Assembly (NCBI GenBank): GCA_905178155.1
Contig: CAJINV010000020.1
Span: forward strand, 992,001-1,056,000
Direction: 5' to 3'
Length of the DNA stretch: 64,000 nucleotides
DNA from: Amoebophrya sp. A120
Lineage: Eukaryota > Protista > Dinoflagellata
A program made the translations under genes and the position numbers. The notes beneath the pieces are model-generated. The model saw only the letters and a program-made list of their open reading frames with translations. It was not told the origin of the DNA and made no database searches. Each line of letters begins with the position of its first letter. Position 1 is the first letter of the stretch. Below, piece by piece: positions 516 through 61,027 of this stretch.

Positions 516-3500
516 TCAGAAAAACACTCGTGTCAAATTTGTATTCATCCACAATTTCGTCAAATCTTCTTCCTCAAGATGTTCCGGCAGCCCGATGATG
601 TTGATCGCGCTGCTGTTCCGGACGTGTATTCTATATCGAGTGCAAAAGTGTCTGGGTCTGGAAGAGTGAGAGGTTTGTCATGCATATTTTGCATGACCCC
701 TGACGCCTGTAATGCATGGTCCAGCATCACATATTTTTAGAGGACTTCCTGAAGATGCCTGTTACGCATGAGAAACACCTTCCCCACGTAGTACAAAGTG
801 GACTCCTCTTGGTTGCTGGTCATGCAATACAAATTTTTTATAGAATCCAAAGACAGCATCACAAGTTTGCATCCTTCCAGACCCAGACACTTTTGCATTT
901 GATATTCTACTCCGGTCGACGAAGCGCCAAAAGTTCGGTAAGTGACACGCGAACTGCGGGTACACCCATCCAGGCCCTGTACCGTAGAAGTGCGTCAACC
1001 CGATGTCTTTGAACAGCTGCGAGAGGCGGGACCGAATGCCTGGATCGGTGCAAGTGGTCGGGGAGGATGTAGAAGGAGTAGATGCTGGTAGAGACATGTT
1101 TTCAATATCATCTTCATCCTCATCCCCTGGAGGTCGTGAAGTAGAACGTGCTGACGTTCGTGTTCTGCCTTCAGGCCCAGCAGATCCAGATGATCCCGGG
1201 TCGTCAGATCCGGCCTTATTTTTGTTCGTTCCTGTCTTCTCCGCCCAGAATGCAGAGTACTCAAACATCACCGCCCACACTCGGCTGTGTCGCAGAAACT
1301 CAGCAGCTCCCAGCAGCGCCGCGCATTCGTACCCTTCTACGTCGGCCTTGACGATGAGATCCCGTTTTTTATGCTCCCTTTTCCGCTGCTTGTTATCAAC
1401 GTATCGCCAGTGTTTGTTCCAAATCGTGTCGACGGTGTGCAGACGGACACTGACATCGTGCTTGTTGATCAGCTGCAGCTTCGCGGCTTCCTGCACCGCC
1501 AGGCTCGCTGCATGACGATCTTCCCCCAGGTAGCTTGGTGTTGCTCTTGCTGCGTCCTCTACTTCTTTTCCATCGTAATAATGTTGCTGTCTGGCTGAAG
1601 TAATGCTGCTGGAAGGAGGAGCAGAGCTCGATCTATCTTTTGACTCGTCAAAAATTTCGTCTTCGACCGCTTCAAGATGATCACCGTCGACCTGCTGATG
1701 TTTTTCTCCACTCATTTCGCCTTCTTGATGTTGACCATGATCTCTCTGCCACTGCGGCCACACGACGTTTCGTTCCTGTAAATCATTCTCCTTCATATCC
1801 ACAGAAAAAAAACACCCATCCCCATCCAATTTTTGTAAATGACAGACACAGCTGCATCTTATGCATCTTTTGCATGACAAATTGGATGGGCTGCATGGGT
1901 TTTTTTCTTTGGATACTTCACATCTCTTTCGTCCAACACCACCGAGCTCCAATTTACCAAAGACAGCGCCCGTTCCTCCCCCTCGGTCTCCGGGGCGCCG
2001 ACAATCGCGCGGACCACGTGCAAAAAATGGTTCGCGTAGTTGTGCAGCAGTAGCTCCTTGTTGTCGCAAAACAGCGTGTCGAGCAGCTTGCGGACGTTTC
2101 CGAGCACCTATGCATGATTGCAAATATGTCTAGGCCTGGAAATAAATTTGTGATGCTAAAATGTGCACGATGAAAACACCTCCTCATGCAGGAAGGCATG
2201 AAAAGCCTGCAGAACGCTTTATCATACGAACTCCGAATGAGTAGAAGCTGCGTTTTTGTAAATATGACGTGAGAGGCAGGCACTTTTGTTGGTCATGCAA
2301 TACAGATTTCACAGGAATGCAAGACCAGCATAACAAGCTCCAACTTTCCACCCCCAGACATATTTGCAATGCATAGCACCGGCTCAAACGCGAACACCTC
2401 CGCTTTGTGGACGACCGCGGCGAGCAGCGACCACATACCCAAGTTGCTTCCCAAGTCGAGATATGAAATGCAAAAGTATCGCACTAGTTGTGGTTCTAGT
2501 ATGAATTGCATTACAAATTGACTTAGCATTACAAATCAAATTTGTGATGCGGATATGCCTTAAGAGAGAGATTTGTAAAGCATAGACGCGATTAGAACGA
2601 GCACGATACTAATACTTTTGCGGTGGATACGAGAAACGTCATGCGGGGTTCGACGTCGAAAATGTCTATGTTGTCGGTGGTGGGGTCATTTTCATTGTTA
2701 TCCTCGTGAAGATGTTCTTGTTCTTCATGTCGGTCAGTATCAACCTGGTCTCCACCGCCTTTTTTGGTTTCATCAACCCCGCCTGCTGATGTAATTCCAC
2801 CAAAAACTACCCGCGTCAAATTCGCACTTCGCGCGCTGCCGTGGTAGTCGCTGGCGTAGCTCCACGCTTCCTGCAGCACGATGTCGTCGGGGACGTCTTG
2901 GTCGCCGAGGGCGGTTTATAAACTGCAAAAGTATCGTGTTCGTATAAATGCATTACAAATTTCTTCAGCATGAAAAATAATAATTTGTAATGCAGATTTA
3001 CCTTAACAAAAGGATTTGTAATGCATGATTGCAATACGAGTGCGATACTTTTGCACAGGATACGGTTCTTCTTGCCGCTGGGTCTTTCCACAAAATCTTC
3101 CCCTTCGCGAGAACTTCCTCGTACAGCCAATCCAGCAGCATTTCCGCGGCCGGGTCCGTCGCCTCCTTCTGCCGGTCAGTGGGGATGTCCAGGTGGTCGT
3201 AGGCTGAAAGGACGAGGTGGTTATTTTCCGGCTCGGGCAAATTATTCAGCTCCACACAGGGCTCATTCACGTACTCCGCATAGCTTTGCCGCACCGACTG
3301 CCGGATGTGGGACAAAGTTAGAGCACCAGAGACATGCGGTAAAACGTTCTTCGACGACGGAAATAAAGTCACAGCAGGACCAGTTGTTCCAGGTCGTGGT
3401 GAGTTCTGCCGTGATTTTCGTTCTGCATCACCCGCGCCCAGAAGCCTCTGGTGGTACAGCTCCGCAAGGCTGTACCGGGTTCGGCGTTTGAAGCGAATAT

Positions 3501-4696
3501 CCGAAGAAGTTGAGGCAGCGATAGCGTCGGTTGTCAATGGGGTGGAGGCACCAGCAAAAATGGTCGCGCTTTTGGTCCTGTTGCTGTTCGGCTCCAGCCC
3601 AGCCTCATCCCTCTCCACTTCCCGGAGCAGTTTCTGCGCAAAAGCCAGAATCTTCCGTTTCCACGCCGCTTTCCGTATCTGCAGCCTCGCTTTGTGCAGG
3701 AACGACAGAAACAGCCACAGCCCGCTGGACTCGTGCGACCCGTGTTCCCGGACCACATCGGAGAAAAACCTTCCGTAGCCGCCTATGGAAGTGTCAGAAT
3801 CGAAATCGACAAAATCGAAAAATTTGTGATGCACAAAGTCGATGCCAGTTGGAGCCTCAGTTTCCAACTGGCGCATGACAAATTTCGGGACCACCAAAAT
3901 CCAGTCTGTCATGCTGTTTGGGCAAGGCAGACTGCTCCTGTCATGCTACTCTGGCAACACATTGTATACCCCTAAAGAGGCTTGCAATCGGTCTCATTTG
4001 CCTGCTCCCCAATACAGGCGTCGCGTGCCCTACATTTTATGCATCACAAATTTTTCGACTTTGTCGATTTCGATCCTGACATTCCCATACCGCCCGGGGC
4101 GTGCAGATTGATCTGCGCCGCGAAAACGCCCTGCGGGGACCCCTCCGCCGGTTTCAGAAAGGCGGAGGTGATATCACACAGGAAAAAGCCGGCATAATGC
4201 AAAAATAAATACACAAAAAAATCTGTATTGCGTATCCTAAGCACCATGCTATGGGGCCGCCCATGACAGATTTTTCTGTGTGTCGGTTTTTCCTATACAA
4301 ATATGCGCTGTCTGCTTTTTCTCTGGGATAGGTGAGGTAGTCTTGGCGGGCAAGGGAACAGTTGCAGGGAACAGAGGTTTTGGTGGTCCCGAAGAAATCT
4401 ACTTGTTCCATAGCATGAAGATCTGGTGCAGCGTGGGTCGTTCTCGTAGTTGGCTCGTACAGAGGACAAAGCCTCTGGCTCGAAACAGCTGTTGTACTGA
4501 AGGCGCATGATGCTGATAGAGAAAACAAAAGAAGTAAAGTTAGTATCTTCGTGGTAGGTTTTGGTTTGGTAACTCTTTTCTTCGTACAGAAGCAGCTCGA
4601 AGAATTTTTACTTCTGCAACAAGAGCAAGTAGAAGAGCAGACATTCACTAATCTGCTTCTGCAGCTACAAGAAAAACCCACAACCACCACCGACAT
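516..4696 (-). CDS. FkbM-family (Methyltransf_21-like) SAM-dependent methyltransferase, ~902 aa, 7 introner introns
   Basis: Removing 7 elements plus 5 nt each leaves 2709 nt (multiple of 3) ending in TGA at 516-518. Reassembled motifs: TFLDLGSNLGMWSLLAAVVHKAEVFAFEPVLGN and LIVKADVEGYECAALLGAAEFL...VMFEYS. The start codon (ATG 4696) is uncertain. Confidence 0.8.
634..904. mobile_element. Introner family A (TIR TATCAAATGCAAAAGTGTCTGGGTCTGGAAG)
   Basis: ~30-bp TIR; TSD TTCTA/TTCTA; excision gives DRSR-IHVRN. Confidence 0.93.
1796..1915. mobile_element. Introner family C (TIR TATCCACA(A)nACCCATCCCCATCC)
   Basis: TSD CTTCA/CTTCA; excision gives ERDVK-ENDLQ. Confidence 0.9.
2109..2375. mobile_element. 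Introner family A
   Basis: TSD GCACC/GCACC; excision gives FEPV-LGNVR; can be read as GT-AG. Confidence 0.9.
2462..2629. mobile_element. Introner family B (TIR TATN4TGCAAAAGTATCGTACT)
   Basis: TSD CGAGA/CGAGA; excision gives MTFL-DLGSN. Confidence 0.9.
2917..3062. mobile_element. Introner family B
   Basis: TSD CGGTT/CGGTT; frame restored. Confidence 0.9.
3784..4089. mobile_element. Introner family H (long TIR TATGGAAGTGTCAGAATCGAAATCGACAAA)
   Basis: ~50-bp TIR; TSD CCGCC/CCGCC; excision gives HAPGG-YGRFF. Confidence 0.9.
4172..4330. mobile_element. Introner family I (singleton)
   Basis: TATCACACAGGAAAAAGC...GCTTTTTCTCTGGGATA; TSD GGTGA/GGTGA; frame restored. Confidence 0.85.
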
Positions 4697-7699: not shown

Positions 7700-10600
7700 C
7701 TACCCGAGCAGCGGCTCTTTCATCGTGCTTGCCGCCGCCGCGCTGCCCGCCGTGCTTTTTGGTTGCGCGGTCGCCCGGGCGGTGCAGACCCACTTTCCGG
7801 TGCCCCAGTAGTAATCGTGGTAGGCGTGCAGCTTGTGGTAGCAGCCCTGCAGGACCATGGACACCATGTGCACGGGGATGCAGAGCCGGAACCAGGCCGG
7901 ATTGTAGCGGCACTGCGAGACGTGCTGCCCGATGTAAATCACCCGGAGGATCAGCGCAAACAGACCCATCCAAAACATGTACTGGTACCTGAGAGTTTGA
8001 TTTTGATCAACAGAGCATATGCATATAGCAGTGAATTTGTGTTGCTGTAAAGAAATAAACTTTTACGTACCAGGACTGCCATTAGCACTGTCAACATCTT
8101 CAAAGTTTGAATTTAGAAACGTCGCGCACGGTTCTAGAACATCTTACCCGGCCTCCAAGGCCCACGCCGCCTCGGTGTGTTCACTGGAGTTCAAAAACTC
8201 TTGGTGCGCGCGGCAGCACATGCCGAACACCTCGAAGTAAAAGAGGTAAAACAACGGGGATTCCGTGGGTGTGCGATTTTCTGTGTACGTGTACCAGTAG
8301 ATCCAGCGCTCGAGGAAGCCCTTGGTGGACTTACTAGACCAGTTCCAGGAGATTGTCCGGTCCATAATCTGAGTTTATTTTTCGGATGATATTGCAATTT
8401 TGATATTGATTTTCACCAGTGCATGTGCAGTTCATCGCGCTGTATGAAAAAGGTTAAGGTTCAGAAATGAAGTCAATGAAATGAATAAGTTCATCCTTGT
8501 TCTTTGAGTTTGATCACGACACACGGAGAAAATAGAAGCACGACGGCGCAGTTGTGAAGTGCTTCAAAAGTAAGTAGATGAAAAAGCATACCTGCAACGC
8601 GCAGTGCATCCACCTTCTTCGCTGCTTGTTGATCGTCGCAAGGGTGGCGGGTTCGCGCTCCTGGCACAGCATATTGTTATCCAACACACCCCGCTGTCCG
8701 AAATACCTGAAGAGAAGTGCGTAATTTTTATACATTGGATTTGGAAGCGCAAGGGCAAGCGCATGATTGAGGAGAGGAGAAGAAGAAGGCGCATCTATAG
8801 AAACCCACACCCAGCAAAGGAGCTTAAACGAGAGCGAAGCCCGCTCGTGCTTGTGCACTAGAAAAAACCGTACATGAATCCCCGGCAGCTCGCGTCGTGG
8901 TCTTCTGCCAACGTTCTGGTGTCAAACTCCACCTGTTTGACCGCGCTGGTCCGCCAGAAGCCGCCGCGGCCGTTGAAGTTACTCCTGCCGTATCCGCAGG
9001 AAATTTCTCGCACACGACGAACAAATGTCGTTTTTGCATGACAAGGCCTGCGTTCGATCCTCGACAGATTGACAAGTTGTTTTACAGTCTGTCTCTAAAT
9101 GCTGGAACTTTTGTGTGTCGCGTGCGGGGAATTCAAATTTCCGATGCCTATTTCGAACAACAAGCCCATGAAGGTATTCGTCTGTGCGAAAGAGTCGCGA
9201 AACGCCATCAGCGCGGTGGTGGGTCGAAAACTGTCCGGCCCCTCGGGAAAGCCCTCGCTATGCAAGAAAAAAGCTGTGTGCTTAAGAGTTGTAAGTCTGT
9301 GACGCAGAAATTGCAAAACAGTTTACGCTTGTCATTCCAAACACCCATGCGATCATCTTTTCAGGTGTGCTTTCATCACGTACGTAGCTTTGATGCAACA
9401 CAAACTTTCTCTGCCATGCGCAGGAAGTTTGTCATGCTGTCACTCGAAGACGTAGACGCCTTCAGTAAAACACTTTTTTTCTTGAATACTCGTAGTCGTC
9501 CTTGCAGTAGATGTTCCGCCCCTGCGCGACGTCGTACTGCTCTGGCCCGAAGATGTGCATCGCCGCCCGGCACATGGTTTCGGCGGAGACAATGGTGTCC
9601 GAATCGTTGAAGAGCGCGAAATCCGTGTCCAGCTATGCTCTGCAAAAGTATCGTGGTTGTACTAATTGCAATTACGCATGACAAATCGTGTTTCTTAGGC
9701 AAATCACCATATACAAAATCCATCTTTCCTTCTGAAAAAACTTTGTAATGCGATTTATACTTAGTACGATACTTTTGTCATGCATACGAGCATGCGGATG
9801 GCGACGTTCAGGTTATCTGCCTTGCAGGTGGACTCCATGATGCGCAGGGCCTTGAACTTCGGCCACTGCTTTTCGAATATAACCTGCTCAGGTGTTGCAA
9901 TCTCAAACGTTGCAATAAAGTCTGGAATTTGTGTTGCCAGAAGTGCATTACCTAGCCAACTCTCGTAGGATTGCGCATGACAAGTTCTGGAGTCGCAATC
10001 CGCACTACAATCTGGCGAAATTTGTATTGCAGAAAGTGGAATGCTGTCCGAGTCTGTCATGCTCATCATGCAATACAAAACCCGAATTCTTCTATTGTAA
10101 CGCTTGAGGTTGTAACGTTTGAGCAGGTCATATCGAATTCGGCGAGTTTCTCGGTGATCTCCTTGTGCGCGTCACCTATGCATTGCAAAAGCATCGCACT
10201 CGTATATCAATAAATGCGAGTCTAGCATTACAGATTGATCTGCTTTCTTACGCTTACCTGAATCAGAATCTGCATGACAAATTTCATTTATTTCGTGTGG
10301 GAAAATTTGCCACGCAATTGTTCATACTAGTACGATACATTTGCATTCTTGCATATCACCCTGCTTCGGACTATTCCAGACCAGGAGGACCTAAATGGAT
10401 TTGTATTTTTGCGTGTTGAAGAGCATGATGTTGTTCCAGGTCAACATGATCATCTTCTTCAGTAAACTTCCACTAAGTTCTTGCATCGGTAAAAAATTGC
10501 AGCACCAGTTGTACTTCTCGATGCTACTGGCGCCGGCGGATAAAAACCGCCGTTGTATCGCAGCGTGCGTGCTGGCACGTACATGTGCACAACCGTGCGC

Positions 10601-13600
10601 ATGTGTGCCGGCGAACGCGCGCATGCACGCTGGCGTGCGCGCGTTACAGGGTCGGGAACGTGTGCACACGCCTGTGCAACCACGTGTGCACGCCTGCGTG
10701 ACGCGCGGGTCACGCAGGGCAGGACGGGCGGGTCGCGCGGGTGCAACAAGGCGTTGCAGCCGCGACCCGACCGTGCAGTGCAAGAGGAGAAGGACGGCGT
10801 GTCGCACCACATCGTAGTGGCAGAACACGCCAGTGCCATGAGTGGCACGAGAGATGGACGGGGAGCGCTACGCGCACCCCCCGGGAGAACGTCAGGATCG
10901 CAGGCGCACGAGCGGTGCGCTGGATCCACGACGCCACCCGCGCCGCACGTGGATGTGCGGGCGGGAGGCCCGTAGCGCCCGACCCTCACCTACGAGGTCG
11001 CACGACGCACGGGCCTATGCACTCACACAACCCGATCTGGACCAGACGGGGAGGTGCGAGGCGACGAGGGCGCGGCAGCTGCCAGAGCTGCGCCCCCTAG
11101 GCATGAGGTGTGAGTGCCGACACCGACGCGTGCGCAGGTCTTCTAGCCTGCGCACCGGTGGAGCATAACACACACGCCTGGCGGTGTCCAACCGCACGTT
11201 GCTCGGTCCCCCTTGGGGGAGCAGGCAACGTAAGAACGCGTGCTGCAGAGGCAGCACTGGGTGCGAAGGGGTGCTCGCGCACCACAGACGCGTGTCGTGA
11301 GGGACACATGGTCGCAACAATGCGACGGTGCTGCGTGAGGTGCAGCGCTGCGTGAGGTGCAGCGCTGCGTGAGGTGCAGCGTGGCGCGAAGACGCAGCCA
11401 CAGTGCCGACGGGCACAGGTTCATCGCAGATGAACCGATGGTGTACCAAGAGGTGGTAACTTTGTCATCCAGGACAAGAGAAGTTGACCTCTCCCCCGAG
11501 GTGGGACGGTCGTTTTGTACTCGAGACCCACCCCCAGTCGCACAGCGAAAGGAAGCAGGGTCGAGCACAAACGACCGGTGGCGAAGGCCACGAAGAGGCG
11601 GTGACAGGTTGCCAGACAGGCAGCTGTCGCCGCGTGAGGGTCGAAACCGACACGACAACGAGTGCGGCTGAGCCACGCAGTATGTCCAACCAATTCGTCG
11701 AGACCGCTTGCGCGCGTAAACATCCATCAGACCAAACAGCATGGGCGGCACCTCAGTCTAGTTACCCAGTCCTAAAAAATTGCAGCACCAGTTGTACTTC
11801 TCGATGCTACAACTCAAGTAAGATTCGTAGACATCCTGTTCGTTCTCCCTCTCAACATGGTTCTATCTTCTATGAGTAAAGCTTTAATTGAAAATAGTCG
11901 GAGAAGTCGTGCTGGGTTGTAGAAGATAGAAGTACCTTGTACCCACCCGGGTACTTGGGTTCCTCTCGCTTGTAGTACTCCAGCACATCGTATGACAGTG
12001 CACAACTCCCCCTCGTCCCCGTCATTTGTCATGCTTAACAGACTGCGCGACTAAAGCCCTGGGGCTGCGGGGTCCGAGGGGTGCACTGAGCACAAAGGGG
12101 GTCCGAGGGGTGCCGTCATTTGTCATGCAAAGTCCCGAATCCATTCGCTGCCTTATGGCACTGTTTGCATGACAAGTTCTGGTACCCAAAATAGAACTAC
12201 ACTCCTGTGCAAATTTGTCATGCAACCCCAGCATTCTTGCTGATGCTTGTATTGCCGTTCATGCTATACAAATGAGGGGGTGGTGGAGGAGGAGTTGTGC
12301 ACTGTCATACATCGAGGATAATATCCTCCTCGTTGGGCATGTAAGCGGGCAACACCACCGTCATCTCCCTGAAGACGTCTTCATCGACATCGATCATCGC
12401 GTGGTAACTATCGCCATCCGCGCAACTCTATCCTGTGCAAAAGTATCGCACTCGTGCCAAGTGCAGATATGCATGACAAATCCATTTTTCTACCTGAAAT
12501 AGCATGACAAATTGCATTTTTGTTCTCGGGAAAATTTGTAATGCAATTTATACCAGTACGATACTTTTGCAGTGCATAAACTTTCGACGTCCATATTCGC
12601 TGCGACCGGGGTGACAATCGAGTCAATCGTTTTCCGCATGGCGTTCTTGCCGATGAGGAATTGCGACCCTCCGGGGGTTTTGTTTCCGTACATCTTCACG
12701 CCCTATGAACTGCAAAAGTATCGCACTCGTAGTGATTGCTATTGCAGTCATGCACAATTACAAATCTTTTTCTTCAGGCAGATCCGCACTACAAATTTGA
12801 TTTCTCATGCTAAGGAAATTATTTGCAATGCATTTTCATTTATACGAGTACGATACTTTTGCAATGCATAAGTACTTCGCCTTTGCGATCAGTTTGTCAA
12901 TGGTGTCGTTGTCCAACCGCGGGGGCTCGTAGGGCCCAGTGGTGTAGACTTCTTTCGAGTTCTTCACGTTTTGTCCGAGGCGGAGCAGCATCCTGTGTAA
13001 AAGTATCGTACTCGTAGTAATTGCATTTATGCGTTACAAATCTCCTTCTTCACCTAAATCCGCATTACAAATTTCGTTTCTCATGCTGAGATAATTTGTC
13101 ATGCGATTTCTACTAGTACGATGCTTTTGCATTGCATAAACAGCGAGAAAATCGCGATCCCGTATGCAATCATGTCGCAGATTGCCGCAAATGCGCTCAT
13201 GGCGATGGTGATGGAGACAAGAATAACGACGGTGTCCTGGTCACTCGGGGTGGTCGGCCGGACCACCGCGGTGGTTGCGAAGATGTAGCCGCGGTAGATA
13301 CCGATGAAGGCCCCGATGGTCGGGAACGCGTACAGAAACAGCGTCACAGCCCAACGCGCGTTGTCGTTCGTGATGCGGGAAGCCTGGAGTAGAAGTAGGG
13401 GTTTGTAGTCGTACACAACAAGTACACGTAGAAGTGAGCTAGAGCATACAAAGTCATGTCATGATGAAAGAAGTTATAGCACAACATCAGAATGAAAACT
13501 CAAACTTCGGGGTCCTGGCGTAAAATCGTACCAGGAAGTTCCCCAAATAGGCTGGCGTCTGGAAGGTTTGCTTCGAATCGTTGACGTAGTCGTGTTTTTT

Positions 13601-38649: not shown

Positions 38650-39170
38650 AACCTAGTACCCTCCACTACGTTGCTGGTGGTGCGCCCTCTCGTTTCTTGT
38701 TTCTTTTCTCTGACTCTCAACAAAGTATTCTTTTATCGCGTGGTGGTTGAGCACCAGATATAGACAACGTAGTGATAACGCAGACCTCGAGTAGACACAT
38801 GGAAGACAACATCCATGCACCATGAAGAACATCCAACGTCACAATCACGTCCTAGTGTCCGTCACGTAAATAACCGGGCCAACGAGGAGTGATTCCTGCG
38901 TAGGTATTATCTTGATTTTTGTTTGCTTGTTCTCGTGTGTCAGGTGTCGCGCAGCCGACAAAGTGAAAAAGCATGCTTTTTGGTTCTCCATTCTCGGTGT
39001 TGTCTAACTTTAGCTTTGCATCAGCCTCCCGATCTTCCTTCCATGATCTACATCGGTAGTAAAAACGAAGATCACGACGACGACCCCACCTCCTACACCG
39101 TCGAGATAGAAGGCCGCGTCTGCAGGCTTTCGCTCGCGTCCTTTGCGGTTATTGATGCCCTCCACATTCG

Positions 39171-41582: not shown

Positions 41583-41583
41583 G

Positions 41584-42375: not shown

Positions 42376-43655
42376 ATTACCAGAGTAAACATCAAGGACT
42401 ACATCTCACGTATTGGGCTAAAACTACCCTCGTTGGTCACTACATTGCTGCGGTGTCGTGTCTTCTCCTTTTTCGTTTCTTTTCTCTCTCAAACTAAGGT
42501 GGTGTGCTCATCATGTAGCAGAGGCTGCCCGGGACGAGAAAACACAGTGTACATCCAACATGGAGGACGATGATCAAAAGTCGGTCAGAAACACAATCAC
42601 ACCCACCTAACGCAAGCGAGGCTGGCAAGCGCAAAAAGTGACTTGTGCGTATTTTATTTTTTCCGTTTGCTTCTCGTGTGGAGCCGACAGACAGAGTGAA
42701 ACATGTATTGCTTGTAGCTCAGTTATTTCGGTTCTCGTTCGAACTTAAGCTCTACCCCCGATCTTACATCTACTGCATCAGTTTTTCTACTATTGCTAAA
42801 ATTGTTTTTCATTCATCAATTTCAATTTGATAAAAGGGATGTGCACTACAATCAAGAAGCATCGAGCGGTCCAGCTCGGAGCTCCGAAGAAGTTCCAGAG
42901 ATGACTCGGTCTGCTTTTGCGAAGAGCGCATTTCATGATTGTCCCGAGGTAATAACAAGCCCGAAAGTCGTACTAGTAGAGTCAACAGACAAGAAGTGGT
43001 CCCTGCTGGACTACTAATCCGCAAACTCGCGCTTGTTTGAAGAAAAATTTTACAAGGTGTCGAGACCATGACCAGCATATCAGACCGGAAAAAAAATCTT
43101 CATCTTCCAGTTCGATTCATCAAAAACTAAGAGTCCTACTTTGTCTTTTATTGGTGAACAAATTATACAACAGGTTTAGCCGTACTGTTTTTACCTGGAG
43201 GCTCACAAATAAAGAACTTTAATACGTTTCTACACGAAGAACTTGAACTGCAGCCCACATAATTGTTCAATCTTAAAACCACTACCATTCATTTCCGAAG
43301 CTCTACGACCAGCACCTGCACCAGCAGGCCGGAATGTAAGTTTATTTTCCTCAATTATTTCATTTATCGGTGAAAAAGGTATTAAATCAAGAAGTGATGC
43401 AAACGGATTCATTTTTGTGTGTTAATGTCGTCATCGACGTGCTTGACTTCTCGTGTCATTGGATTCATTATCTAGAACAAAATAGAAGTGAAAAAAAAAG
43501 TATAAAAAATATTGACCCCCCGCGGCCTTATCCTTGCCATCATCGCTGAAAGTTGAAATCGCGTTCCTCTCGATCTCGTTCCTCTCCTCGCGTGCACCTT
43601 CTTGTTCAATCTTCCACAGGAGAAAGATCTTCAGGTCCCGAATTTTTCAGCCTCG

Positions 43656-49600: not shown

Positions 49601-52600
49601 ACCACGCGGCCACCTCCTCCCACAACCGGGGGCGACCCTGGTGGCGGGCTCGGGCTTGGGATTTTCTTTCGGATTTTCCGAATTGTGGGTGTGTGGCCTG
49701 GTGAAACGAGACCGCTCAAGTAGCTGCTCGTCGCTGGCGACGGAGTTGGAACGTCCTGCGCTGGGGGCGACGCACTCTTCACGGGCACAACGTTCGCGCC
49801 GCCGCGAGGATTAGATCTAGTACTGCTGCTGTGGTTCTTGTTTCCGTTATGATGACCTCCATTTCCATCGCCCCCGGTAGAAGCCGCCGCCGCTGCTAGA
49901 GCGGAGGAGACGCGACTTTTTCTGGTCGCAGTGCTGGTCGAAGGCTTGGTTGAGGCGACGGAAGAGGTATGAAAACCCGAGGTTGTACAGCTGGTTCCCC
50001 GTGGCTCACCGTGTGGGTAAAACAGGATTTGCAGCGGCCCCGGCACGCCCTCCAGGTAAAATTTTTCCGAAGTCAGCTGGATTTGCGTTCTGTTCACCAA
50101 CGTAGTTGTGCTGGACGCGTAGTTGTTTGTTGCGGGAGCGCCGGATGATCCTCTCGCACCACGTCCTCTAGCAGATGATGAGGACGCTGTTTGTTCCACA
50201 TGATCCTTCGTCGCATGATAGTTGAAGTAGTCCGGTCGGAGCCACAGGTGCCACGTAGCGCGGTTGCCGCCGATGGAGGGCAACGGGGCGTAATCAACGG
50301 ATAGAGCTGTGGTTGGTCCTGGCGTAGTTGTGCCTGCTTTTTGACGATCTCTAGAGGCAGCTTGTTTATCTTCCAACTCCGCGAGGGCTGTCGCAAGTTT
50401 TTCTTGGAGGAGGAGTTGTTTATTACTCTGCTCCTGCGTAGCTGCACCTGCGTCCCATCCTACATTTTCAGCCTCGTCAACATCCTTGTTCACAAAATCA
50501 CGGTCCATCGTATGGTGCTTCTCATCCGCAGAGAGGTTCTTGGACAACCACCTTGCTCCAACTCCATCTCCCCCCAACACACCACAACTACAGATGCGCT
50601 TGACGTTCTCCGCGTGGGCGAGAAAGGCTGCAAGGGTCTTCTCCACGTCGTGCTTGTTCCCCCGCCTACTACACAACTCCAGGTCCCGCCAGAGCCACGA
50701 GTCCACGACCAAAGGTTGGGGAAACGCGGCCAGCAAGGACACACTCACAAACGCGGCCTGCCGAAACAGCGGAAATGTGTCGTTTTTCGTGCAGATTTCA
50801 CTATTGAAACTCAGCAGCTTCACCACGGTCGTGGTATGCTGCTGCCGGGACGTAGATCGCGACTTCTTTCTCCTCTTCTTCACTGCGTGCTGACCTTTAA
50901 TATCAACATTTGGTGGCGCATCAGCATGATGCTGATCGTCATCTTTATTATCGTCTCCTCCTTCCACTTCATCACCTGGATCATCATCGTCGACCTCGGT
51001 AGAAGCACCCCTGCCGGCAGCTATTCGCTTTTTGAGGTCCTTCAGCCGTTTTTCTGCCGCCTTCACGGCTGCGGCTGCTGCTGCAACCTGGCCGTGGTCA
51101 TCTGGAGCGCTGCCGAGACGAGGGTCTTCCCCTTCTGCGGACGATGAGGAGCTTGACGAGGAAGATGTTCCAGTGACTGGCGCAGAAGAGGTTTTGTTGC
51201 CTTCTAAGAGGTGGTCAGACGCACAACTAGAATCCTCCTCAGAAGGGTCGTCATTTATTTCGGCCGCTGTTCCAAACGTTTCAGAACTACCTTCTTGGTC
51301 GTCGTGGTCGTTCTTCAAGAAGTTCTTGTCATCTTGCGCTTCTAGTTGATGGCGGCCTGTAGCTCTACTCCTCGTAGTCGTACCTGTTTCAACATCTTGA
51401 CCTCGTTCGGCTGGTAGTTCTGAGTAGAGGCAAATTTCAAACACTCCGTTGCCGGACACGCCGAAACTGCCTAGTGTGCCGGTTGTGGTTCGCAAATACC
51501 GGACCAGATGCTTTTTTCTCTGCAGAAGCTCCCACGAGTTGTTGTCTACCGGGAGGTCGGCTGTACTAGAAGTCGTAGTTGTACTCTTGCTGTTGTTCGT
51601 GTTCGTCCTACGCCGCCTTTGTTGACTTTGATGTTGTTCAGCTTCTCTTCTTGTACTAGAAGTGCTCTTCTTTTGAACCTGCACAGGCAGAGCCGCGGTA
51701 CTACTAGCAGCATCCGTCGACAAGGGCGACGCACTACCCTGCTGCAAAGGCGACGGCCCTGGTGCGTCAGTGAAGAGTAGATCTTGGCTAATATTCACAG
51801 CGCCGCTTCTCGTCCCTGGCCCGGTTTTAGCGAGCAAATCGTCTAGCCTGTCGATCTCGGAGGGGATGTCGTAGTTGATTTTGTAGTAAAAGCAGCGCCG
51901 CTCCGCGTCATAGCTGATGAACTCGAGCCGTTTATTTTTGTTGGACAAAGACGAGCCGTTGGCGTTGGGTTCTGTAGTTGCGTCATCTTTCATCTTGCCG
52001 AAAAACAGGTCACCGGCTGTTGCTCCGTCTTCCGCTGGAGGGTCTACTTGCGCCAGTACGGCGGGGCCGCCGTGCTCCTCCTGCTGATCTGGTTGGAAAT
52101 TTCCAGAACCACGATGATTTGAGCGATTCCTGTCGTGACCTTTCGACTTCTTTCCCCCGCTCTTCGCAGTTGATGATTGGTGATAATCATTCGTCGGAGG
52201 AGGTGCAGATGATTGGCTTGGAAAGATCAAAGTGCGTTCCTCGAAGCCTCCACGTCTATTTTTCCTGTTGTAGTTTGATGTGTCTGGTCCCCCTCGTCGT
52301 CCTGGCACTGTCGGTGAGTAAACGTCTACTTTTGCAGCTGAAGGCGATGGCGAGTGAGAGTCAACTACACCGTCGTGGTAAAGATCGTCCTCGTCATCCT
52401 CCTTATCCGGTGACTCCATGATATCGAGGTTGAGCTCCACCTGGTTATGGTTCATGCGATTGCTAGACGCTGCAGTGCTTGCCCCGTAGAATGTCGTCGA
52501 CGAAGATGAAAAGTTATCGACGTACTTCATTTTATTTCCAGCACCTCCGCCTGCTTGTGCCTGCTTGTGTCCTGATGTTGTTGAACGTTGTTGGGTAAAA

Positions 52601-54651
52601 ATATTGGACCGAGCGGGCCCTGCATGAGAACTACCGTCAAGGAAAGCGTTGTCCTGTTTGTTTGATGCGGTTGTAGAACTAGAAACTGCGACGTTGCTCT
52701 TCGATCCACCTCCACTGCTATTGTTCCTTTTCGCCTCCCCGGTATTGTTGTTCGCTGGAGATGACCATCCCTGCTTGTAGTGCTCGCTCCATCCCGGGTG
52801 CCACGTGATATTCGAGGCTGTTCTCCCCCGGGGATGCGGCGCCACCGGGGAAGTCCAGGCGACCGTCGGATCAAAATGCTCGTGGTCCCAGTTCGAGTTG
52901 GCCACCTGTTCCCGCTGCAGGTAATTCTCGAACGCGTTTTCCTGCGCGAAGTACTTCTTATTCTCGTAGTTGTTATCGGCACCACCAGCCCAGGGCGTAG
53001 CTGTTGTTCCAGGTCGCATGAAGTTGTAGTTTGGGTCGTTGTTCGCATTCTGCGTGCTGGTTTCGCTGTGGCCAGCGCTGCTGGGAAAAGAACCATGTCC
53101 GGAAGTGTACCACCCTGCATTGTAGTAGCTAGAGGAGCCGGGCGGGTCGGCATTCCAAGAATTATAGTGAGGACTAGAAGATGAAATAGCAGTAGCAGCT
53201 CCTTGTTGATGGTGGTTGTAGCTGCGATGCCCCGCCCAACTATCCCACTTACTGGGTGCACCAGCTCCAGTACCATTGTTCTTGGAATGATAACTATTGT
53301 AGTTCTGTTGCCCGTTCTTGTTCCAGGGAAATGCATGATACCCTGCTGGTCCACCACCACTAGGTGGCGCGTGTTGGTAGTGCGGCGAGAAAGCTGCTCC
53401 ACTGTTGTTGCCCCCTTTCTGCGGATGCCACGCCCAGAAGCTTTTTTGGTGCTGCCCGCCACCCACACCGGCACCCCAAGAGCCGCCCTTCGGCGAAAAA
53501 GCAGCGGCTGTCCCTGCTGGTCCCCATAGATTGTCCCCGCCGAATGGCGCAGGTGGCTGCTGATTCTTTCCACCAGGCGCTCCTGACTTGCTACTTGGGT
53601 GGAAAAAACCACCTCCGGTCGAGCCGCCTTTTAACATTTTCCCCCCTACTTGCACTGCGTTGTAAAAGTGCTGCTGCTCCATCAGCTGCGGGGGTGCCGG
53701 ATAAAATCCGTGAGCAGGACTGTAGTAGTCAAGTTGCTTATTTCCTCCCTTTTTGCTTTTCATGTTCATCCCTTTGACGTGCGACATCTGTGTTGGTGCG
53801 CCAGGAGCACTGCTGGTGAAGACATGCGTTGGAGCAGGAGGTTGTATGGCCATCGGCTGCGAGGAGATCTGATTTTTCCCGTGGGTCGGGGTTGGCTCCG
53901 GTGCGGCCCAGGTGCCGGCATGCGGTCGAGAAGATGTAGTAGACTCGAAGTTGTTTTTATGCTGTACTAGGTGAGCAGATCCTGGTGGACCTCCACTTCC
54001 AACTTGACCCTCAAGTTGGCCTTTTGCAGTTGTGCCGACGCCCCCATGTGGTGGTCCGCCTCCACTCTTCATCGGCTTGCCGCCCTTTCGAGGACCTGGT
54101 GGACCTCCTCCGTAAATAAGAGCGACGCCTGGATGTCCTACTTCATGGTAGCCATCTCCTGAATGTTGATGCACACCAGCTGGTCCTTCCACCTGGTGCT
54201 GGTAATTGTGTATTCCTTGCTGGGCTGCAGCTTCGTGCCCACCAACTTCCTCTTCTACTCGCTCCGCGGCCTTCCGCATTTTCCTGCCGTGCCCTCGCGG
54301 GAAGTGGTGCGGCTTCATCCCAGCAGCACCTCCCGACGGTGAGCTGCCTCCGTACTGGTAGTTTGCAAGCATGGCACTCCCTTCCGCCCGTTGTGCAGCT
54401 GGAATGAAGCTCCCGCCCTTGGAGGATGAATTATGCGCCGCCACGCTTTGATGATAAAACGACCCGTCCACGGCCACGTGCGTCGGTGCAGATTGCGTGC
54501 GGAAATGCGGTGCAGCTCCGTTGTAGCTCTGGTCAACATGATTCCCATTCGTTCCGCTGGTCGTGTCGTGCTCAGGAAAATTATCATGCTGCACAGCAGT
54601 ACCTACATCTGCGAAACCGGAACCGCTACTCCCACCTGTCTCGTCGTACAC
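43656..54651 (-). CDS. Very large protein: low-complexity N-terminus, two MATH/TRAF-like domains, C-terminal ATP-grasp ligase domain
   Basis: The 2027-codon ORF continues across 3 elements as IRSEPFKVGDYELQLFLYPHGSGTDPEYVSLFLK...WGYPTFCPRSFLANYFFLEKEN, in frame into MEATKAACW (ORF 46664-47863). It then shows ATP-grasp motifs YPVVLKIPYSDSSCGVVVV, EPLLVGDEYVVNLVS and GASHLELI...LIELNARLAG, with TGA at 43656-43658. GT-AG intron at 44327-44548; two other introns and the true start are not resolved. Confidence 0.7.
43694..43864. mobile_element. Introner family B
   Basis: TSD CCCAG/CCCAG. Confidence 0.9.
45012..45333. mobile_element. Introner family D
   Basis: TSD CGCAC/CGCAC; excision gives NLVSC-EGVHV. 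Confidence 0.92.
46389..46671. mobile_element. Introner family P (TIR TATN2TGAGTN4ACGTCCCCGCCCCA)
   Basis: TSD CGTCG/CGTCG; excision gives TTGDD-ELLYL. Confidence 0.88.
47904..48082. mobile_element. Introner family B (divergent)
   Basis: TSD AGCTC/AGCTC; excision joins the MATH region to the ATP-grasp region. Confidence 0.85.
48153..48395. mobile_element. Introner family E
   Basis: ~39-bp TIR; TSD CCGAT/CCGAT. Confidence 0.93.
48487..48636. mobile_element. Introner family B
   Basis: TSD GGACC/GGACC; can be read as GT-AG. Confidence 0.92.
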
Positions 54652-56734
54652 ATTCTCGGGTAATGCTGGGGTGCCTGCGTGTTATGTGAAATTTTGAGTA
54701 GAATCGTTTCACTCATTGTTCCTGTCGAGACGGTTGATACACCGGCCCTGGCTCTTGCGCCCTTTCTGAGGAGCCGCGGAAAAGACGACAGCAAGTGTAG
54801 CTTATCTTTATTTTCATCTTCTACAACAACTAGAACGATACGAAGAAGTTCTTGTAGCCAATGCGAGGAAACCTCAATCTCAACCTAGAGTGTGTTGAGG
54901 AAGAAAATCGTTTTCTATACCACTGGCAGCTCTACTTCCAGAAGCTGCTCCGAGGAGGACCCCGTGACTTGTCGTCTGCTGTTCGTGAATGTGGTACTTC
55001 AGGCGCGCTTCGATGCCGACCTCCTCAAAGCGCAGAATCTCGTCCTCGGCCACAAGGGAAAGCAGCCGCTCCGCCTCGCGCAGGAGAGAGCGGTCCAACA
55101 ACATTGACGACGGTGGCGGCGGCTGCTCCATCATCATCACGCGCAGGACGACGCCGGCAGTGACAATGAGCGGTAGAAGAAGTAGTGGCGGCGACGAAGT
55201 AGAAGAACTCCTTCTACATCAAGAGTTGAGGTCGAGAAACCTTCTCCTACCAGAGAACGAATTTTGCCACCAAACGCAAACGTCGAGGTGGGCCACCAGC
55301 GCCGCTCCACGTCGATTTGCAGCCTCCAGGACGACCTTCGTGTACAACTGATGGTCCTCTCTTCGGTGGACGTCGAGTGTGCTAGGATGTCGTAGTTGGA
55401 GAGGACTGTCGCCGCACTAGTACCTCCTGTACCAGCGGTCGTTCCATGTTGCAGCTATTAGTGGTCCTCTTCCTCGCGAAGGAGTACTACCGGGGAAAGG
55501 CGCGTCAAGGAAAAAAGGTTGGTTCTCCTACAACTACGCTGTCGGCTGTCCCCGGTGGTGTGGTCTACCTGCTCGGTCTGCGACAGCTCCAGCTTGTATC
55601 GCGCTCCTGCATGACGAACAAGCTAAAGAACGCTAGACCAATCGCGATAGCTATCGCAGGAGGTGGTCAGGTCACTAGACAAGTTTCATCTTCCTCTGCG
55701 TCTCCTATCGTCAAAAGAACAATAAACGATTTTTTGTCCTGCTTTCTAAAAATACCGCTGTTGTAGCCTTATTCGCGACACTCGGCGGGGGTTTTTCTTT
55801 CTACATTGTTCATCCGACTTCAGACACGACGGCTGCACAAAAAAAATATCACCTCGAGCAAGCCCATGCATACCGTCTCTCCTCAGTTAAAATGAACAAA
55901 CAATAACGACACAAGCGAGATTGAAACTCGACGAAAACCACCACCGACAATCCTCGCCCGAGCCTCTTCTACCTGACAGAAAGACGACGCAACTCTCTTT
56001 ATTACCTCGCAGGAGAGCGTCAACGGGCCACGACAAGCAAAATCCAATTGAACTCTCCTCGAACTTCTTCACTCGTGCGGTAGTGGAAAACTACAGCTCT
56101 AGGTTCATTCTGTTGCTCTCCGACAAGACGAGCTACTACTTCTACGCACGCACGACATACAGAAAAGGCGAACAAGATTTGATCAACGCCTTTTTGTCAT
56201 TACCGCAGGCATCAAATTTCATTTGAGCGGAAGTCGTTCCTTTGCATGCGCCGTAGCATGTCGCATTCGCAAAATGTTCATCTTCATTTTCCGTTCATAT
56301 CAATCGATTAAACTCGTCACAACTCCTTGGATGATTATGTTTGGCAGACTTCCAGCATTGATGTTAGTCTCTCGTCTTATCGAACTACCATTACAAAGGC
56401 TGTTCTTTTCATTTTGTTTTTTCGGTCGCAACCGCGGAAGTGCCAAGATCATGCGGACGGGGACACTCAATTACCAAGTCGTATTGTAGCATTTGAATCT
56501 TTATTTCCAAAGGAGCTGCCGCTGCGTACTATCGACAACTTTATGTTGATGCTCTACAGTTGGAACTACAATTACGTGCCAAGAACGACGACCAAAAGTT
56601 GTTTCTCGAAGCTTCAGCTTCGTCCCTTGCTTTCTTCATTTTAGTATGATTTCATTCGTATGATAATCTATCGTCAAACTTCGTTCCTGTGCCTGTCTGG
56701 CACTCTCGGAACAAGCATCTTTAAACTACATGAG

Positions 56735-59700
56735 TCACTGCATCCTGGTCATCTCTACTGGCACTTCTACTCGGGAAACCACCCGCTCCGTCTCCATCTG
56801 CATGTACTGAATCACGTACTCGGCTACCTTGATCAGTTCGTAAGGCCCAAAATGCTATCAAGTGTAAAAATGTCTGGGTCTGGAAACTTGTGATGCTGGG
56901 TGGCGTCTCATGATGAGGCCACAAGTGCTGGCTCAGCATGACAAGTTGAAGTTTCTGAGCTTCTAGGTGTGACATGACAAACTGCGTTTCTGCATCACAG
57001 AAAAGTGGAGCTCTTGGGTAACGTGCATGACAGATTTAAGAGTCATGCCAGACAAGCATGACAAACATGCTTTCTTCCAGACCGAGACATTTTTGCATTT
57101 GATAAGTGCCGGATCGCCTCCTCAATCACCGCAGTCGGGGCGTCGTGGCAGTTGCACTCCACCAGGTCCACTTTTACCAGCTGGATCAAATGCTGGAGCT
57201 GGTCATCAGTCAATTCTGGGCAGTTTTCCAGGTTCGGGGTCAAGATCGGGGACGGGGTTAGCACGGGAGATGGGGTGGACTCGGCTGTTGAAGGTTTTTT
57301 TTTTGTTCGTTCAAACAAGAGAAATGATAATGAAGACTACACTAAAGTAACTATTATGCAGGTGCCAATGCCCATACTGTATGGTCTTCGTCCATTCACG
57401 GACCGATGGATGCCTACAGCGGCCCCCGCCCCCCGAAGGGGGGTGGGGTCGCCGTTTGGTGGTGCGCGAGCACACACCCGAACGCTGAAACGCACCGAGA
57501 GCGTCCTTCAGAAGTGGCGGGGCGGGCAGTGGGCCTCACCCCTAGAGCACACATAGCCTTCGGCTCTGATGTGAGCTAGACTATACTCTTGGAAGGGCGG
57601 TGGTACGTTGTCGTAAGGATGCATGCACACGTGCCGTGGCAAGACAAAGACCGTACAGAGAGACTCCTGACGCCTCACTGGAGGCCATGACAGGTCTGGC
57701 CCTAGAGAGGGTCAGAGTCAGGGTGGGCAGAAAAAGACCAAGAGAATAGGGAAAGGAGGCCTGTACGGCATCCCTCCCGGCGTGACGACGGTCATGCCAA
57801 TCTCAGTCACCTGCGGCCGCGTAAGGTTCTCGACCGACTCGCCGCCTCCAGCGGCTGAGCCACACAGTATGTCCAACCAATTCGTCGAGACCGCTTGCGC
57901 GCGTAAACATCCATCAGACCAAACAGCATGGGCGGCACCTCAGTCTAGTTACCCAGTCCTAAAAACTACAGCTTTCGATTGTTGAAAGAGGTCAAAAAAT
58001 TAATAGCGCATCCGCGTCAAGAACGAAAGGAAGTAGTCATCATCCAATCAAAATCAAGAAGATCACGCAAGGAGAGTGCGTGTTTTGTATACTTACCCGT
58101 GTTCTTGCCTGACTGTGTCGCGAAATGCGCAGTTGCAAGCGCCGACCCTGACTCGTTTGTTCCGTTTGTGCGCGTAGTGACAGGATGACAATTTGTTCCT
58201 CCAGTGACAGCTCCGCCACTCTCGCCGTGCATTCTTCCGGTTGAAGATGGGTCAGGCAAAGAGAGTTCTGGTGTGCTCGCTCCGTCGGCGGCGCTGCTGG
58301 TATCGTATATGTCGGCCCACCTCGTCGACGTTCTTGACGTTTGTCCGCCGACTACGGTCACTTCACCGACGTTCCGCATTCCTTGTTGTCCACCTGCCCG
58401 GCCGCCACGACTGGGAGTGGGAGAGAGAGGAGCACCCTGGTTGATGACCGTGGGCTGAATGATCGAGGGGTCAGGCGGGGGGCTGCGGGTGGGACGGGAG
58501 GTGGAGGAAGAGGAGGGCGCAGCACCGTTGGAGGAAGTCGTGGAGACCTGTCGTGTTTTATTATTACGAAAAGGATTTTATTGTTCCCACGAAGATGAGT
58601 TGAGCTCGATCACGGTCTTGACAAACGAAAATAACCGCAGATCTTTCAGTTTCCATGCGCAAAGCGTGACAAACAAGAATTACGCGTTGTACATTTGCCG
58701 AAGTCCCGCTGTTTATCCTCCCCTTTGCGGCCGTAGGGACGACGATACCAGCGCCAAACTCTTTTTTGTTCCGCACTTCGCCAAGTGCAACCGGGCTTTT
58801 GTGATCCCAGTCGTCCTTTATCTTTTCGTTTGTTTCACCACCAGCAGCTGTAGAAGTAGCCCCACGTCCCGCAACATCCTTTTTCCGATTGTCCCTTGAG
58901 TTGGGCTGAAAGACGACGCTGACCTCCGGTGTGGGAAAAGCCGGCGGCCTCGGTTGGATGTCGATTCCCGAGTCCTTCGTCCTGCTTGACACCGTCAGCT
59001 TCCTCGGTCGCATCCAGGACTCCATCGAGGTCAGAACGCCGAAAGGCGGGCGGGTGTAGCTCCGTGGGGCTGTGATCATGGAGGTGGACGAGCTTGCGGG
59101 CGAGGGTATAGGAGTTTGGTACAACGCGGAAAGAGAACTACTAGAGCCGGCGGTCGTGCTTGGGGAGGGGATGGGGAGATGAACTTGAACGCCAGATGCA
59201 CCTCTACTTCCACCGGGGGAAGATGAGGAGCAGGAAATTTGTGCAGCAGCAGCTGCACCGGCACTATAATCCACCACTAGGCGTTCTTTCACGCCAGTCG
59301 GCAAGTCTTCGTCTTTCATTTTGTACTCGTACTGGTCCTTCAATTTGAACAGAATCACCATCGGGATGTCTTGCGGCAAGTATTACAATGAAAAATGCCC
59401 CCACTCCCGAACTTGGGAGCATTTGTATTGCAAACCTTTCCAAGTGAAACACTCGCCCTCTTGCATCTATCAGCATCACAGGTTTCCACTCGTGAATAGC
59501 AAAAATTTGCATTGCAAAAGACCCCAGCAGGAGCGGCGCTTGTCATGCAAGCGATGCGATACACGCCTAGACTCTGGTGCATCAGAAAGATTCATACTCC
59601 TTTCATGCATGACAAAAAATTTTCATTTGGAAATGTTGCATTACAAGTTTTTGCAATTTCAGGGGTAGGGGGCATTTTTCACTGTAATAGCAAGACCTGC

Positions 59701-61027
59701 AGGATGCCCGGGAAATCGGACTCGTCCCGGAGAGAGAGCCCTAAGTCGGATAGCTTGTACCTGCGCTTGTCCAGCCCCAGACTCGTGATCGTGTTGCCCA
59801 CCGAGCGAAACACTTCCGCTCTATCGTTGTTAGTGCTAGTGTTCTTTACGGAGGTCCCTCCTGGTTGTAGTTGTACAACGCCGTTTTTTCGTGTTCTAGA
59901 AGACCAATTCGGGATCACGCAGTTGCGCATACACCGCAACTCTTCGTGAAAGTTTTCATCGATCTTATTGTAGTCGATCTGGCAGTCGTTTATTCGCAAA
60001 TACATACTCTGCGTGGCGACCTCCCCCTTCCCGGTGAGCGTCACCCTGGGGTAGCGCTCCAGCTCCGCGACGGCTTTCAAGACGACTGAGAGGCCTTCCT
60101 CCGTGATGTAGGTGTCGGACAGGTGGATTTCGTGCACCGGGGTTTTGCATCTCCGGAGGAAGATTGCTAAAGCACGCATGGCCTCGTCTCCGAGGTCGTT
60201 TTTGTACAGCTTCAGGACCTATCAAATGCAAAAGTGTCTGGGTCCGGAAAATTCTGAGACTTGTCATGCACGGTTTGCATGACCCATGATGTCTGGTCTG
60301 TGATGCATGCCCTAGCATCACAGGTTTTTTGAGGGATTCTTGATGCCTAATCCGCATGACAGATGCCCTCTCCGCGTAGCAAAAATTAGAATTCTTTTGC
60401 TGCTCATGCAACACAAATTTTTTAGACATCCAAAGGCAGCATCACAAGTTGCATTCTTCCAGACCCAGACATTTTTCCATTTGATAGGACCGAGCACCCG
60501 ATGTCGAAGTCGTTCAAAAAGTTGAAGAGGCAGTTATGGGGCTCTCAAAAGTTACATTCATCTCAGCTGTTACATGATTTGCCATGCACAATTGCCTTAA
60601 CTATCGACGCCATCAAGTAGCTGCTTCGCATGACAAACTTTCAGACGGCCAAACAGGCTGAGAATCTGTGCCAATTCTGTCATGCAAGACGCGGAAGGTC
60701 CTTCCTTTCACTTTTGCCATTCTTGCATCACAAATTTGCGTAACAGTTGAGAATGTAACAGTTGAGAACGCGGCCATACCACTCGACCCCCCGGTTGCCG
60801 ATTTTTTGGGAGGACAGGTCGATGGTGTCCAGGTGGGTGACACGCCGCTGGTGGCGGTCGATTTTTTCCTGAAGTTCCTTTCGCCAGAGGTGGACCGCCT
60901 GCTCCACCTCAATGCTGGTCATCCTTTTGGCGGAGCTCCGCCGATACTCGTCCGCCACCGCCCGGATCTCGCCTTTCGTCGGATTGCCATTGTAAGGCTT
61001 CAACTGGGGCATCCACGTCGAAGACAT
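56735..61027 (-). CDS. Leucine-rich repeat (RNI-like) protein with S/T/P-rich C-terminal half
   Basis: Spliced LDTIDLSSQKIGNRGVEWLFNFL, VLKLYKNDLGDEAMRALAIFL and VHEIHLSDTYITEEGL. It has 4 introners, a GTAAGT...CAG intron at 57285-58096 and TGA at 56735-56737. One intron near 58550-58690 is unresolved. Confidence 0.7.
56856..57104. mobile_element. Introner family A (subfamily 2)
   Basis: TSD AATGC/AGTGC; frame restored. Confidence 0.9.
57421..57965 (+). mobile_element. Second GC-rich intronic insertion sharing the 110-bp end of 10528-11773
   Basis: 57851-57960 matches 11664-11773 at 109/110 and is followed by AAAAA. Possible 7-bp TSD CTACAGC at 57414-57420 and 57966-57972. The left boundary is uncertain. 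Confidence 0.55.
59381..59689. mobile_element. Introner family F
   Basis: TSD GCAAG/GCAAG; inverted relative to 25013-25318. Confidence 0.92.
60220..60486. mobile_element. Introner family A
   Basis: TSD GGACC/GGACC; can be read as GT-AG. Confidence 0.92.
60535..60778. mobile_element. Introner family E
   Basis: TSD GCAGT/CCACT (3/5); frame restored. Confidence 0.87.

Follow-up and report, generated by a model that had tools for sequence, protein, structure and literature searches.

The closest described counterpart of the elements analyzed here is the introner system of the dinoflagellate Amoebophrya sp. A120 itself. Farhat 2021 (PMC7789003), on which, as on the other papers cited below, we draw for the parts of the text available to us, reports 29,850 introner copies in 1,954 families that make up 17% of the genome, are supported by RNA and are mixed with GT-AG introns. 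Their inverted repeats consist of TAT, seven variable nucleotides and three A, they are flanked by direct repeats of 3 to 5 nt, their splice sites are called variable with no clear signature, and a hairpin model is drawn. Here, we analyze a 64,000-nt stretch of the A120 genome (the window; contig CAJINV010000020.1, positions 992,001 to 1,056,000) that carries 65 such elements. They interrupt A120 genes, have the TAT, seven-nucleotide and A-run arrangement and the 3- to 5-nt repeat, fall into families and are removed from transcripts. The window elements are, thus, the introners of Farhat 2021 with no difference in kind, and the kinship suggested by an earlier sequence-only reading of the window is correct, as a consequence of which their discovery is not new. 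In the window, we observe insertion with a 5-bp duplication, removal of the element plus 5 nt, a fixed splice register and strand-specific constraints at the element ends. This fixed, strand-specific cut pattern suggests that an altered spliceosome, rather than the hairpin alone, removes the elements. The available text of Farhat 2021 mentions neither the fixed register nor the strand asymmetry, nor the removal of copies irrespective of their orientation. The register and the strand-specific code appear to be unreported in the literature searched, which left out most subscription papers and contained no paper dedicated to the Amoebophrya splice register or branch point; Fig. 3 and S19-S25 of Farhat 2021, which were not visible to us, may already show part of the pattern.

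Three other systems offer partial parallels; in what follows, positive and negative positions are counted from the first and the last base of the intron. [quoted passage not shown] Euglenid nonconventional introns have TIRs, TSD-like repeats and an offset terminal pairing, coexist with GT-AG introns, and their mechanism is likewise open (PMC11282704). In the euglenid introns, +4 to +6 pair with −8 to −6 and circles are released (PMC11282704), whereas in the A120 elements the corresponding positions are +2 to +4 and −7 to −5, and their pairing is broken in a strand-specific manner. The pyrimidine-purine junctions of euglenid introns are not seen here, with a purine at +1 in 36/65 and a pyrimidine at −1 in 39/65 elements. 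The introners of Micromonas, Aureococcus and Polarella are TIR/TSD elements that take splice boundaries from the TSD and leave mRNA length unchanged; they keep canonical or GC-AG sites (PMC9860276, PMC12130899), whereas GT-AG occurs in the A120 elements at chance level.

The sequence-only reading had listed 64 insertions between 634 and 60778. Our independent, curated detection also yielded 64 over this range, to which a 65th, degenerate element without a recognizable TIR (37476-37690) was added that TIR detectors miss. Coordinates run on the plus strand from the first base of TAT to the last base of ATA, and the boundaries of 8991-9144 and 40052-40166 were corrected by eye; all elements sit in minus-strand genes, and an element a-b corresponds to an inferred intron from a−4 to b+1. 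An unbiased scan for terminal inverted repeats gave predominantly TAT-starting elements among hits with matching 5-bp flanks, and a strict detector found 36 hits in the window vs. a mean of 0.06 and a maximum of 1 in 100 block-shuffled windows. The elements are 104 to 344 nt long and, with their repeats, occupy 14,504 of the 64,000 nt. The description of nearly all of them as TAT…ATA with TIRs and a duplication holds for the TAT start (60/64) and less well for the duplication, as the flanking repeat matches at three or fewer of five positions in 9/64; the count of 43 perfect 5-bp duplications was reproduced (43/64), while exact repeats of 3, 4, 6, 7 or 8 bp flank none of the 64. A is present at inverted-repeat positions 11, 12 and 13 in 53, 53 and 58 of 64 elements. 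The proposed number of about 14 families did not hold up: we obtained 22 groups at 60% coverage, 11 of them with several members, and the number varies with the threshold. At least 59/64 elements have copies in other loci, and related copies within the window form 19 opposite-orientation and 14 same-orientation pairs. Short length, TIRs, a fixed-length TSD and insertion in either orientation are features that the elements share with MITEs, i.e., nonautonomous TIR DNA transposons. A link to IS3EU, which has TAY ends, was not confirmed by the literature search and was dropped, and an Rfam search returned no hits. As had been claimed, all elements interrupt coding sequence, 48/65 inside annotated proteins and 17/65 in the open frames of FkbM, MATH, LRR and flanking open reading frames (ORFs). 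Empty sites were not found, as no locus among the matches listed overlapped window exons.

Several observations establish what is removed. First, in sequencing run X3, assigned to RNA by guess and with zero depth in the intergenic bin 32573-33239 (50.7 in run X1), record 9 is a 7,897-nt contig of probable RNA from which 18/18 elements are missing at exactly element plus 5 nt. Its four gaps of 920, 765, 267 and 2330 nt equal the summed lengths of 4, 3, 1 and 10 elements, each plus 5 nt, and the single junction at 26465..26726 joins 26727 to 26459, skipping 267 nt (262+5). This RNA-side evidence is confined to one stretch, 19900-39899; raw RNA runs X9 and X10 gave 28 and 3 reads, all partial and carrying no junction information. 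Second, in the gene models of four annotated proteins, which were built on BLAT-aligned transcripts with the longest ORF kept (PMC7789003), 48/48 elements are removed, 46/48 of them as element plus 5 nt. Third, removal of element plus 5 nt opens full-length frames in 8/9 gene stretches, and in the remaining one, GT2b, 178 of 188 aa are open before a GT-AG intron; this frame test restricts the extra nucleotides to 2, 5 or 8 and cannot distinguish these. Retention would shift the frame for 46/65 elements, and 17 of the other 19 carry stops in all frames. Copies are removed in either orientation: 23654-23978 and 28112-28436 are 75% identical, lie in opposite orientation in the same gene and are both missing from X3 record 9, as are the likewise related, opposite-orientation copies at 22658 and 27388. 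The exact removal put forward from the sequence is borne out by these data, as are the operation of GT-AG splicing in the same genes (nine canonical introns in 3/4 annotated proteins, alongside the elements) and the lack of GT-AG in all six registers of most elements (58/64). Nearby frame-keeping GT-AG pairs exist at 27/64 elements and were considered as an alternative; in the contig, the exact element-plus-5 sums exclude their use.

The removed segment is N-UAY…A-Y-N5 and not the element plus its TSD: its first base immediately precedes TAT, and its last is the fourth base beyond ATA. Because perfect repeats hide the cut position, it is the imperfect repeats that fix it. Of the 48 junctions, 47 have the usual 5' site, and the one placement compatible with every one of these retains 4 nt of the upstream copy and the final base of the downstream copy. 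That at most 4 nt are kept follows from 12704, 37952 and 40052, and that at least 4 nt are kept from 12989, 21949, 36964, 37476 and 37789; the ends of contig pieces at 20032, 21949 and 39421 also fit at least 4 nt. Specifically, at 12704..12870 (minus strand, as for all elements below), where the repeat matches at 2/5 positions, the annotated protein is compatible with the upstream copy contributing 3 or 4 nt and no other number, the same holds for the 5' side of 37952, and 40052..40166, which at 1/5 has nearly no repeat, is removed as element plus 5 nt with 2 to 4 nt allowed. Two elements depart from element plus 5 nt. In 8991..9144, which has lost its 5' TAT, the intron as annotated exceeds this length by 6 nt; it can be placed in two ways, and in one of them (8987-9151) it begins at an A-UAG upstream and its end stays four bases after AUA. 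37952..38135 ends in AUG, and its annotated 3' site lies 15 nt inside, four bases after an internal AUA (intron 37963-38136). In both exceptions, the cut fits the motifs and not the TIR. The element 37476..37690, which reads TAT…ATG with a 4/5 repeat and has unpaired ends in the predicted fold, is removed as element plus 5 nt in the protein P0002. In the inferred register, 39421..39764, which starts with TTT, begins G-UUUGC with G at +1, and for 60535..60778 the register predicts C rather than W at the junction. As a separate observation, 16 elements (e.g., 2462, 12989 and 25388) have an in-frame internal ATA 15 to 18 nt inside the 3' end, a possible alternative acceptor that would add 5 to 6 residues and is used in the model at 37952.

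The element ends are constrained on one strand. In the window (n=65), U+2 is present in 65, A+3 in 63, Y+4 in 64, A−7 in 65 and U−6 in 65 elements, and −5 is A in 58 and G in 7. A second set was drawn from 145 loci with the same families, among the matches listed, which may or may not be of the same strain (in the best eight, copies reach 88-95% identity). A strand-symmetric detector found 388 elements in these loci, and the strand was called from codon use, a procedure that on the window was right for 64 and wrong for 0 elements (51 and 1 with a held-out model); 43/388 elements without a call were dropped (149 with the held-out model), and a few deviant calls are weak. In the remaining 345, U+2 and A+3 are invariant (345 each), +4 is U in 333, C in 10 and G in 2, A−7 is present in 344, −6 is U in 341 and C in 4, and −5 is A in 335, G in 6, C in 2 and U in 2; A−7 is followed by a pyrimidine in 65/65 window elements. 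Mirror positions (+2 to +4 vs. −5 to −7) deviate 0:10, 0:4 and 12:1 in the second set, 0:5, 0:3 and 11:0 with the held-out codon model (n=239), and, pooled with the window, 0:12 (p=0.0005) at the first and 14:0 (p=0.0001) at the last, while the interior of the repeat is symmetric at 11/11 positions. Transposon ends are symmetric and their mirror positions should decay alike; the tips do not, and something reads the transcript strand. This reader needs U+2, A+3 and A−7 and not a paired tip. A single mutational bias does not explain the pattern, since A>G and U>C changes occur at tolerated positions and are nearly absent at constrained ones. The 5' end of the elements equals the host GUAY site minus its G: all nine canonical host introns start with GUA, eight of them with Y+4. 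Of the hallmarks of U2-type introns, the elements have U+2 and the host +3/+4 motif and lack G+1 and the 3' AG; AG ends 4/65 elements, and GT-AG is found in 1/65 in the window and 11/345 in the second set, as expected by chance. In Table S4 of Farhat 2021, the leading A120 classes have an N-T start in 9/9 cases and the A25 classes a T-T start in 9/9, and A25 repeats begin with TTA (PMC7789003). Separately, intron positions +1 and −2 (repeat positions 5 and 3) are associated across window and second set (p=0.0014), which may reflect target-site or codon structure.

Altogether, we lean toward a model in which the cell's own spliceosome, having lost its check of G+1 and the 3' AG, cuts 7 nt after a predicted branch adenosine, with the hairpin as a helper. 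Read like the host GUAY site, the 5' TAT would supply U+2, A+3 and Y+4. Branching would be normal, at A−7, with the first A of the terminal ATA as the branch adenosine, and the 3' cut would be placed by distance (7 nt) and not by sequence. The hairpin would assist by bringing the ends together and masking look-alike sites within the element, but it would not define the cut. In the P complex of yeast, U6 pairs with U+2, and the 3' splice site is docked through pairs formed by G+1, G−1 and A−2 (10.1101/212811). The letters lost in the elements are this docking set, and U+2 is kept, which points to a spliceosome without the docking check. In its strong form, the model holds that the Amoebophrya spliceosome dropped all three 3'-docking letters (G+1, A−2 and G−1) and kept U+2 and a branch adenosine, with a 7-nt ruler placing the 3' cut, so that every transposon with TAT ends and a 5-bp duplication would make a scarless intron whichever way it inserted, which would explain about 30,000 gene insertions; we regard this strong form as evenly balanced between right and wrong. 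As TAT…ATA is the same on both strands and the 1+4 removed nucleotides equal the 5-bp duplication, each new insertion would from the outset be an intron that leaves no scar, whatever its orientation. A120 retains U2, U4, U5 and U6 and 83/89 proteins (PMC7789003), and in Fritillaria the U2 spliceosome is needed for all intron classes, which provides a precedent (PMC13326754).

A number of points weigh against this model. Loss of the docking bases impairs exon ligation in yeast (10.1101/212811), and U1 was not found in A120 according to the available text (PMC7789003). The branch at A−7 is a prediction from sequence; only 5/9 canonical introns have A at −7, and the bases preceding A−7 show no strand asymmetry and, thus, no sign of selection for U2 pairing. 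G+1 (22/65), G−1 (17/65) and A−2 (14/65) are at background in the window, where no selection for any of them was seen; 15/16 first/last base pairs occur, and +1 and −1 are not associated (p=0.13). The upper bound of the register depends on three annotated junctions and not on raw reads, and the 37952 model may represent a minor isoform, since the annotation kept the longest ORF. The strand in the second set is inferred from DNA, and the read mapper may have influenced Table S4. Finally, the arms pair in 59/64 predicted folds, and the terminal AUA is used in 12/13 covered elements with an in-frame internal AUA. Given this preference for the terminal AUA, the hairpin structure may still matter for removal.

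The last two observations also favor the strongest competitor, a euglenid-like nonspliceosomal or second-spliceosome route that amends the idea of structure-guided removal from the sequence-only reading: the hairpin base and a few strand-specific bases would be recognized, cuts with a 1-nt/4-nt overhang made, exons ligated and circles released. We consider this route possible, though doubtful. It would account for the absence of G+1 and AG and of first/last covariation, and the failure to find U1 speaks for it (PMC7789003), as do the offset terminal helix and the circles of euglenid introns (PMC11282704) and the paired noncanonical ends in hemistasiid diplonemids (PMC12621601). However, each of the three terminal pairs is broken somewhere, nearly always in a way that spares U+2, A+3 or A−7. 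The changes at −5 in the window, 7/7 of which are A>G and preserve a U·G pair, are in favor of the route; a wobble rule based on them failed in the second set, in which 4/10 deviant elements have C or U at −5. On the transcript strand, G·U is not in excess in the stems (184 G·U vs. 168 A·C in the second set; 73 vs. 75 in the window), and the sense strand has the lower folding energy in only 28/64 elements. Moreover, 8991 and 37476 are removed despite unpaired ends in the predicted fold, two junctions moved to nearby motif copies (8991 and 37952), and the 5' motif equals the host GUAY. In the overall interpretation offered earlier, scarless removal beside GT-AG splicing stands, while structure-guided removal, as it was worded, is not supported.

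The remaining alternatives fare far worse. DNA excision in some life stage, with RNA transcribed from empty sites, is very unlikely; the RNA status of X3 is a guess and 1,829 joints fall outside those listed, which leaves it some room, but X1 contigs cross elements without differences (records 1, 7 and 8; X1 may be the source of the window itself), none of 15 X1 joints among the matches listed is an element deletion, the intergenic depth of X3 differs from that of X1, and the strand-specific constraints point to RNA. A hairpin between direct repeats is the expected setting for skips by reverse transcriptase. Such artifacts, termed falsitrons, are documented (PMC8240250), and all RNA evidence here is cDNA-based; yet retention would break the genes, elements whose repeats match at 1/5 and 2/5 positions follow the register of the rest and the termini are under strand-specific constraint, making falsitrons more improbable still. 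That the host genes are dead pseudogenes with ordinary MITE insertions is next to inconceivable and found no support, as removal of the elements leaves frames of up to 3064 aa intact and the element-free contig contradicts the untranscribed pseudogenes that the sequence-only reading had named as its refutation.

The element-bearing genes all lie on the minus strand, which matches the co-oriented clusters reported for the genus (PMC7789003), and the exons of four annotated proteins, P0001 to P0004, map to the window. Exon searches returned one protein each at 100% identity, annotated Amoebophrya sp. A120, for P0001 to P0003 and a 3064-aa TRP-like protein for P0004. The FkbM-methyltransferase ORF (519..4696; Pfam Methyltransf_21 on one exon) has seven elements (634-904, 1796-1915, 2109-2375, 2462-2629, 2917-3062, 3784-4089 and 4172-4330) and after their removal encodes 902 aa in 2709 nt, a length that had been predicted, as had the 9195 nt of P0004. 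The GT2 glycosyltransferase gene (P0001, 951 aa; 7703..15196) has six GT-AG introns and 11 elements (8991-9144, 9259-9488, 9634-9786, 9878-10132, 10177-10355, 11991-12309, 12429-12578, 12704-12870, 12989-13138, 13699-13934 and 14562-14710). The gene for the TRP-like channel (P0004; 17613..32630) has two GT-AG introns and 22 elements, among them the 18 missing from X3 record 9 (18431-18690, 18725-19040, 20032-20217, 21949-22126, 22323-22473, 22658-22909, 22959-23266, 23336-23587, 23654-23978, 24392-24588, 25013-25318, 25388-25537, 25669-25829, 26465-26726, 27388-27650, 27688-27849, 28112-28436, 29031-29245, 29343-29604, 29739-29899, 29992-30253 and 31166-31418). The unnamed gene P0002 (596 aa; 34274..38464) has one GT-AG intron (35360-35503) and 12 elements (35137-35308, 35568-35723, 35830-36065, 36102-36354, 36408-36622, 36748-36902, 36964-37253, 37318-37434, 37476-37690, 37789-37905, 37952-38135 and 38237-38340), and the unnamed gene P0003 (544 aa; 39174..41582) has three (39421-39764, 40052-40166 and 41097-41399). 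Four elements (46389-46671, 47904-48082, 48153-48395 and 48487-48636) interrupt a MATH-domain ORF (46121..54681; Pfam MATH_2 match below cut-off), and 43694-43864 and 45012-45333 lie in ORFs downstream of it. An ORF labeled LRR by the sequence-only reading alone (58567..61087; no Pfam hit for the exon tested) has three elements (59381-59689, 60220-60486 and 60535-60778), with 56856-57104 in an ORF downstream.

Other features of the window stand apart from these genes' elements. Within the 1,545-nt GT-AG intron 10391-11935 in the GT2 region lies a GC-rich insertion of a different type; a 38-nt direct repeat (10490-10527 and 11773-11810) flanks this insertion, and 162 nt of the insertion are 89% identical to 57804-57965. 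A 273-aa open frame (41587-42405) ends right at the P0003 start codon, which is in a different frame; judged by its length, X3 record 12 should have its 5' end near 42300, so that one RNA may span both. The segment 45414-45679 is probably a GT-AG intron, and its ends can be read as G-TAT…ATA too, with a 4/5 repeat; the frame, judged by eye, favors GT-AG, and it is possibly a former introner turned canonical, or chance. The region 15600-16700 is GC-rich and free of elements; both of its strands carry long open frames, and Rfam gave no hit there.

While the A120 elements were known, their removal route was not, and the register and strand code make the mechanism testable. The register predicts that the branch lies at the A located seven bases from the end of the intron, that +1 and −4 to −1 tolerate any base, and that the stem is dispensable. 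It also lets the 65% of A120 introns that are noncanonical be reannotated by one rule. If the proposed mechanism is true, the second step of the spliceosome can run without GU-AG docking, and this would explain how transposon invasion of coding sequence could recur tens of thousands of times.

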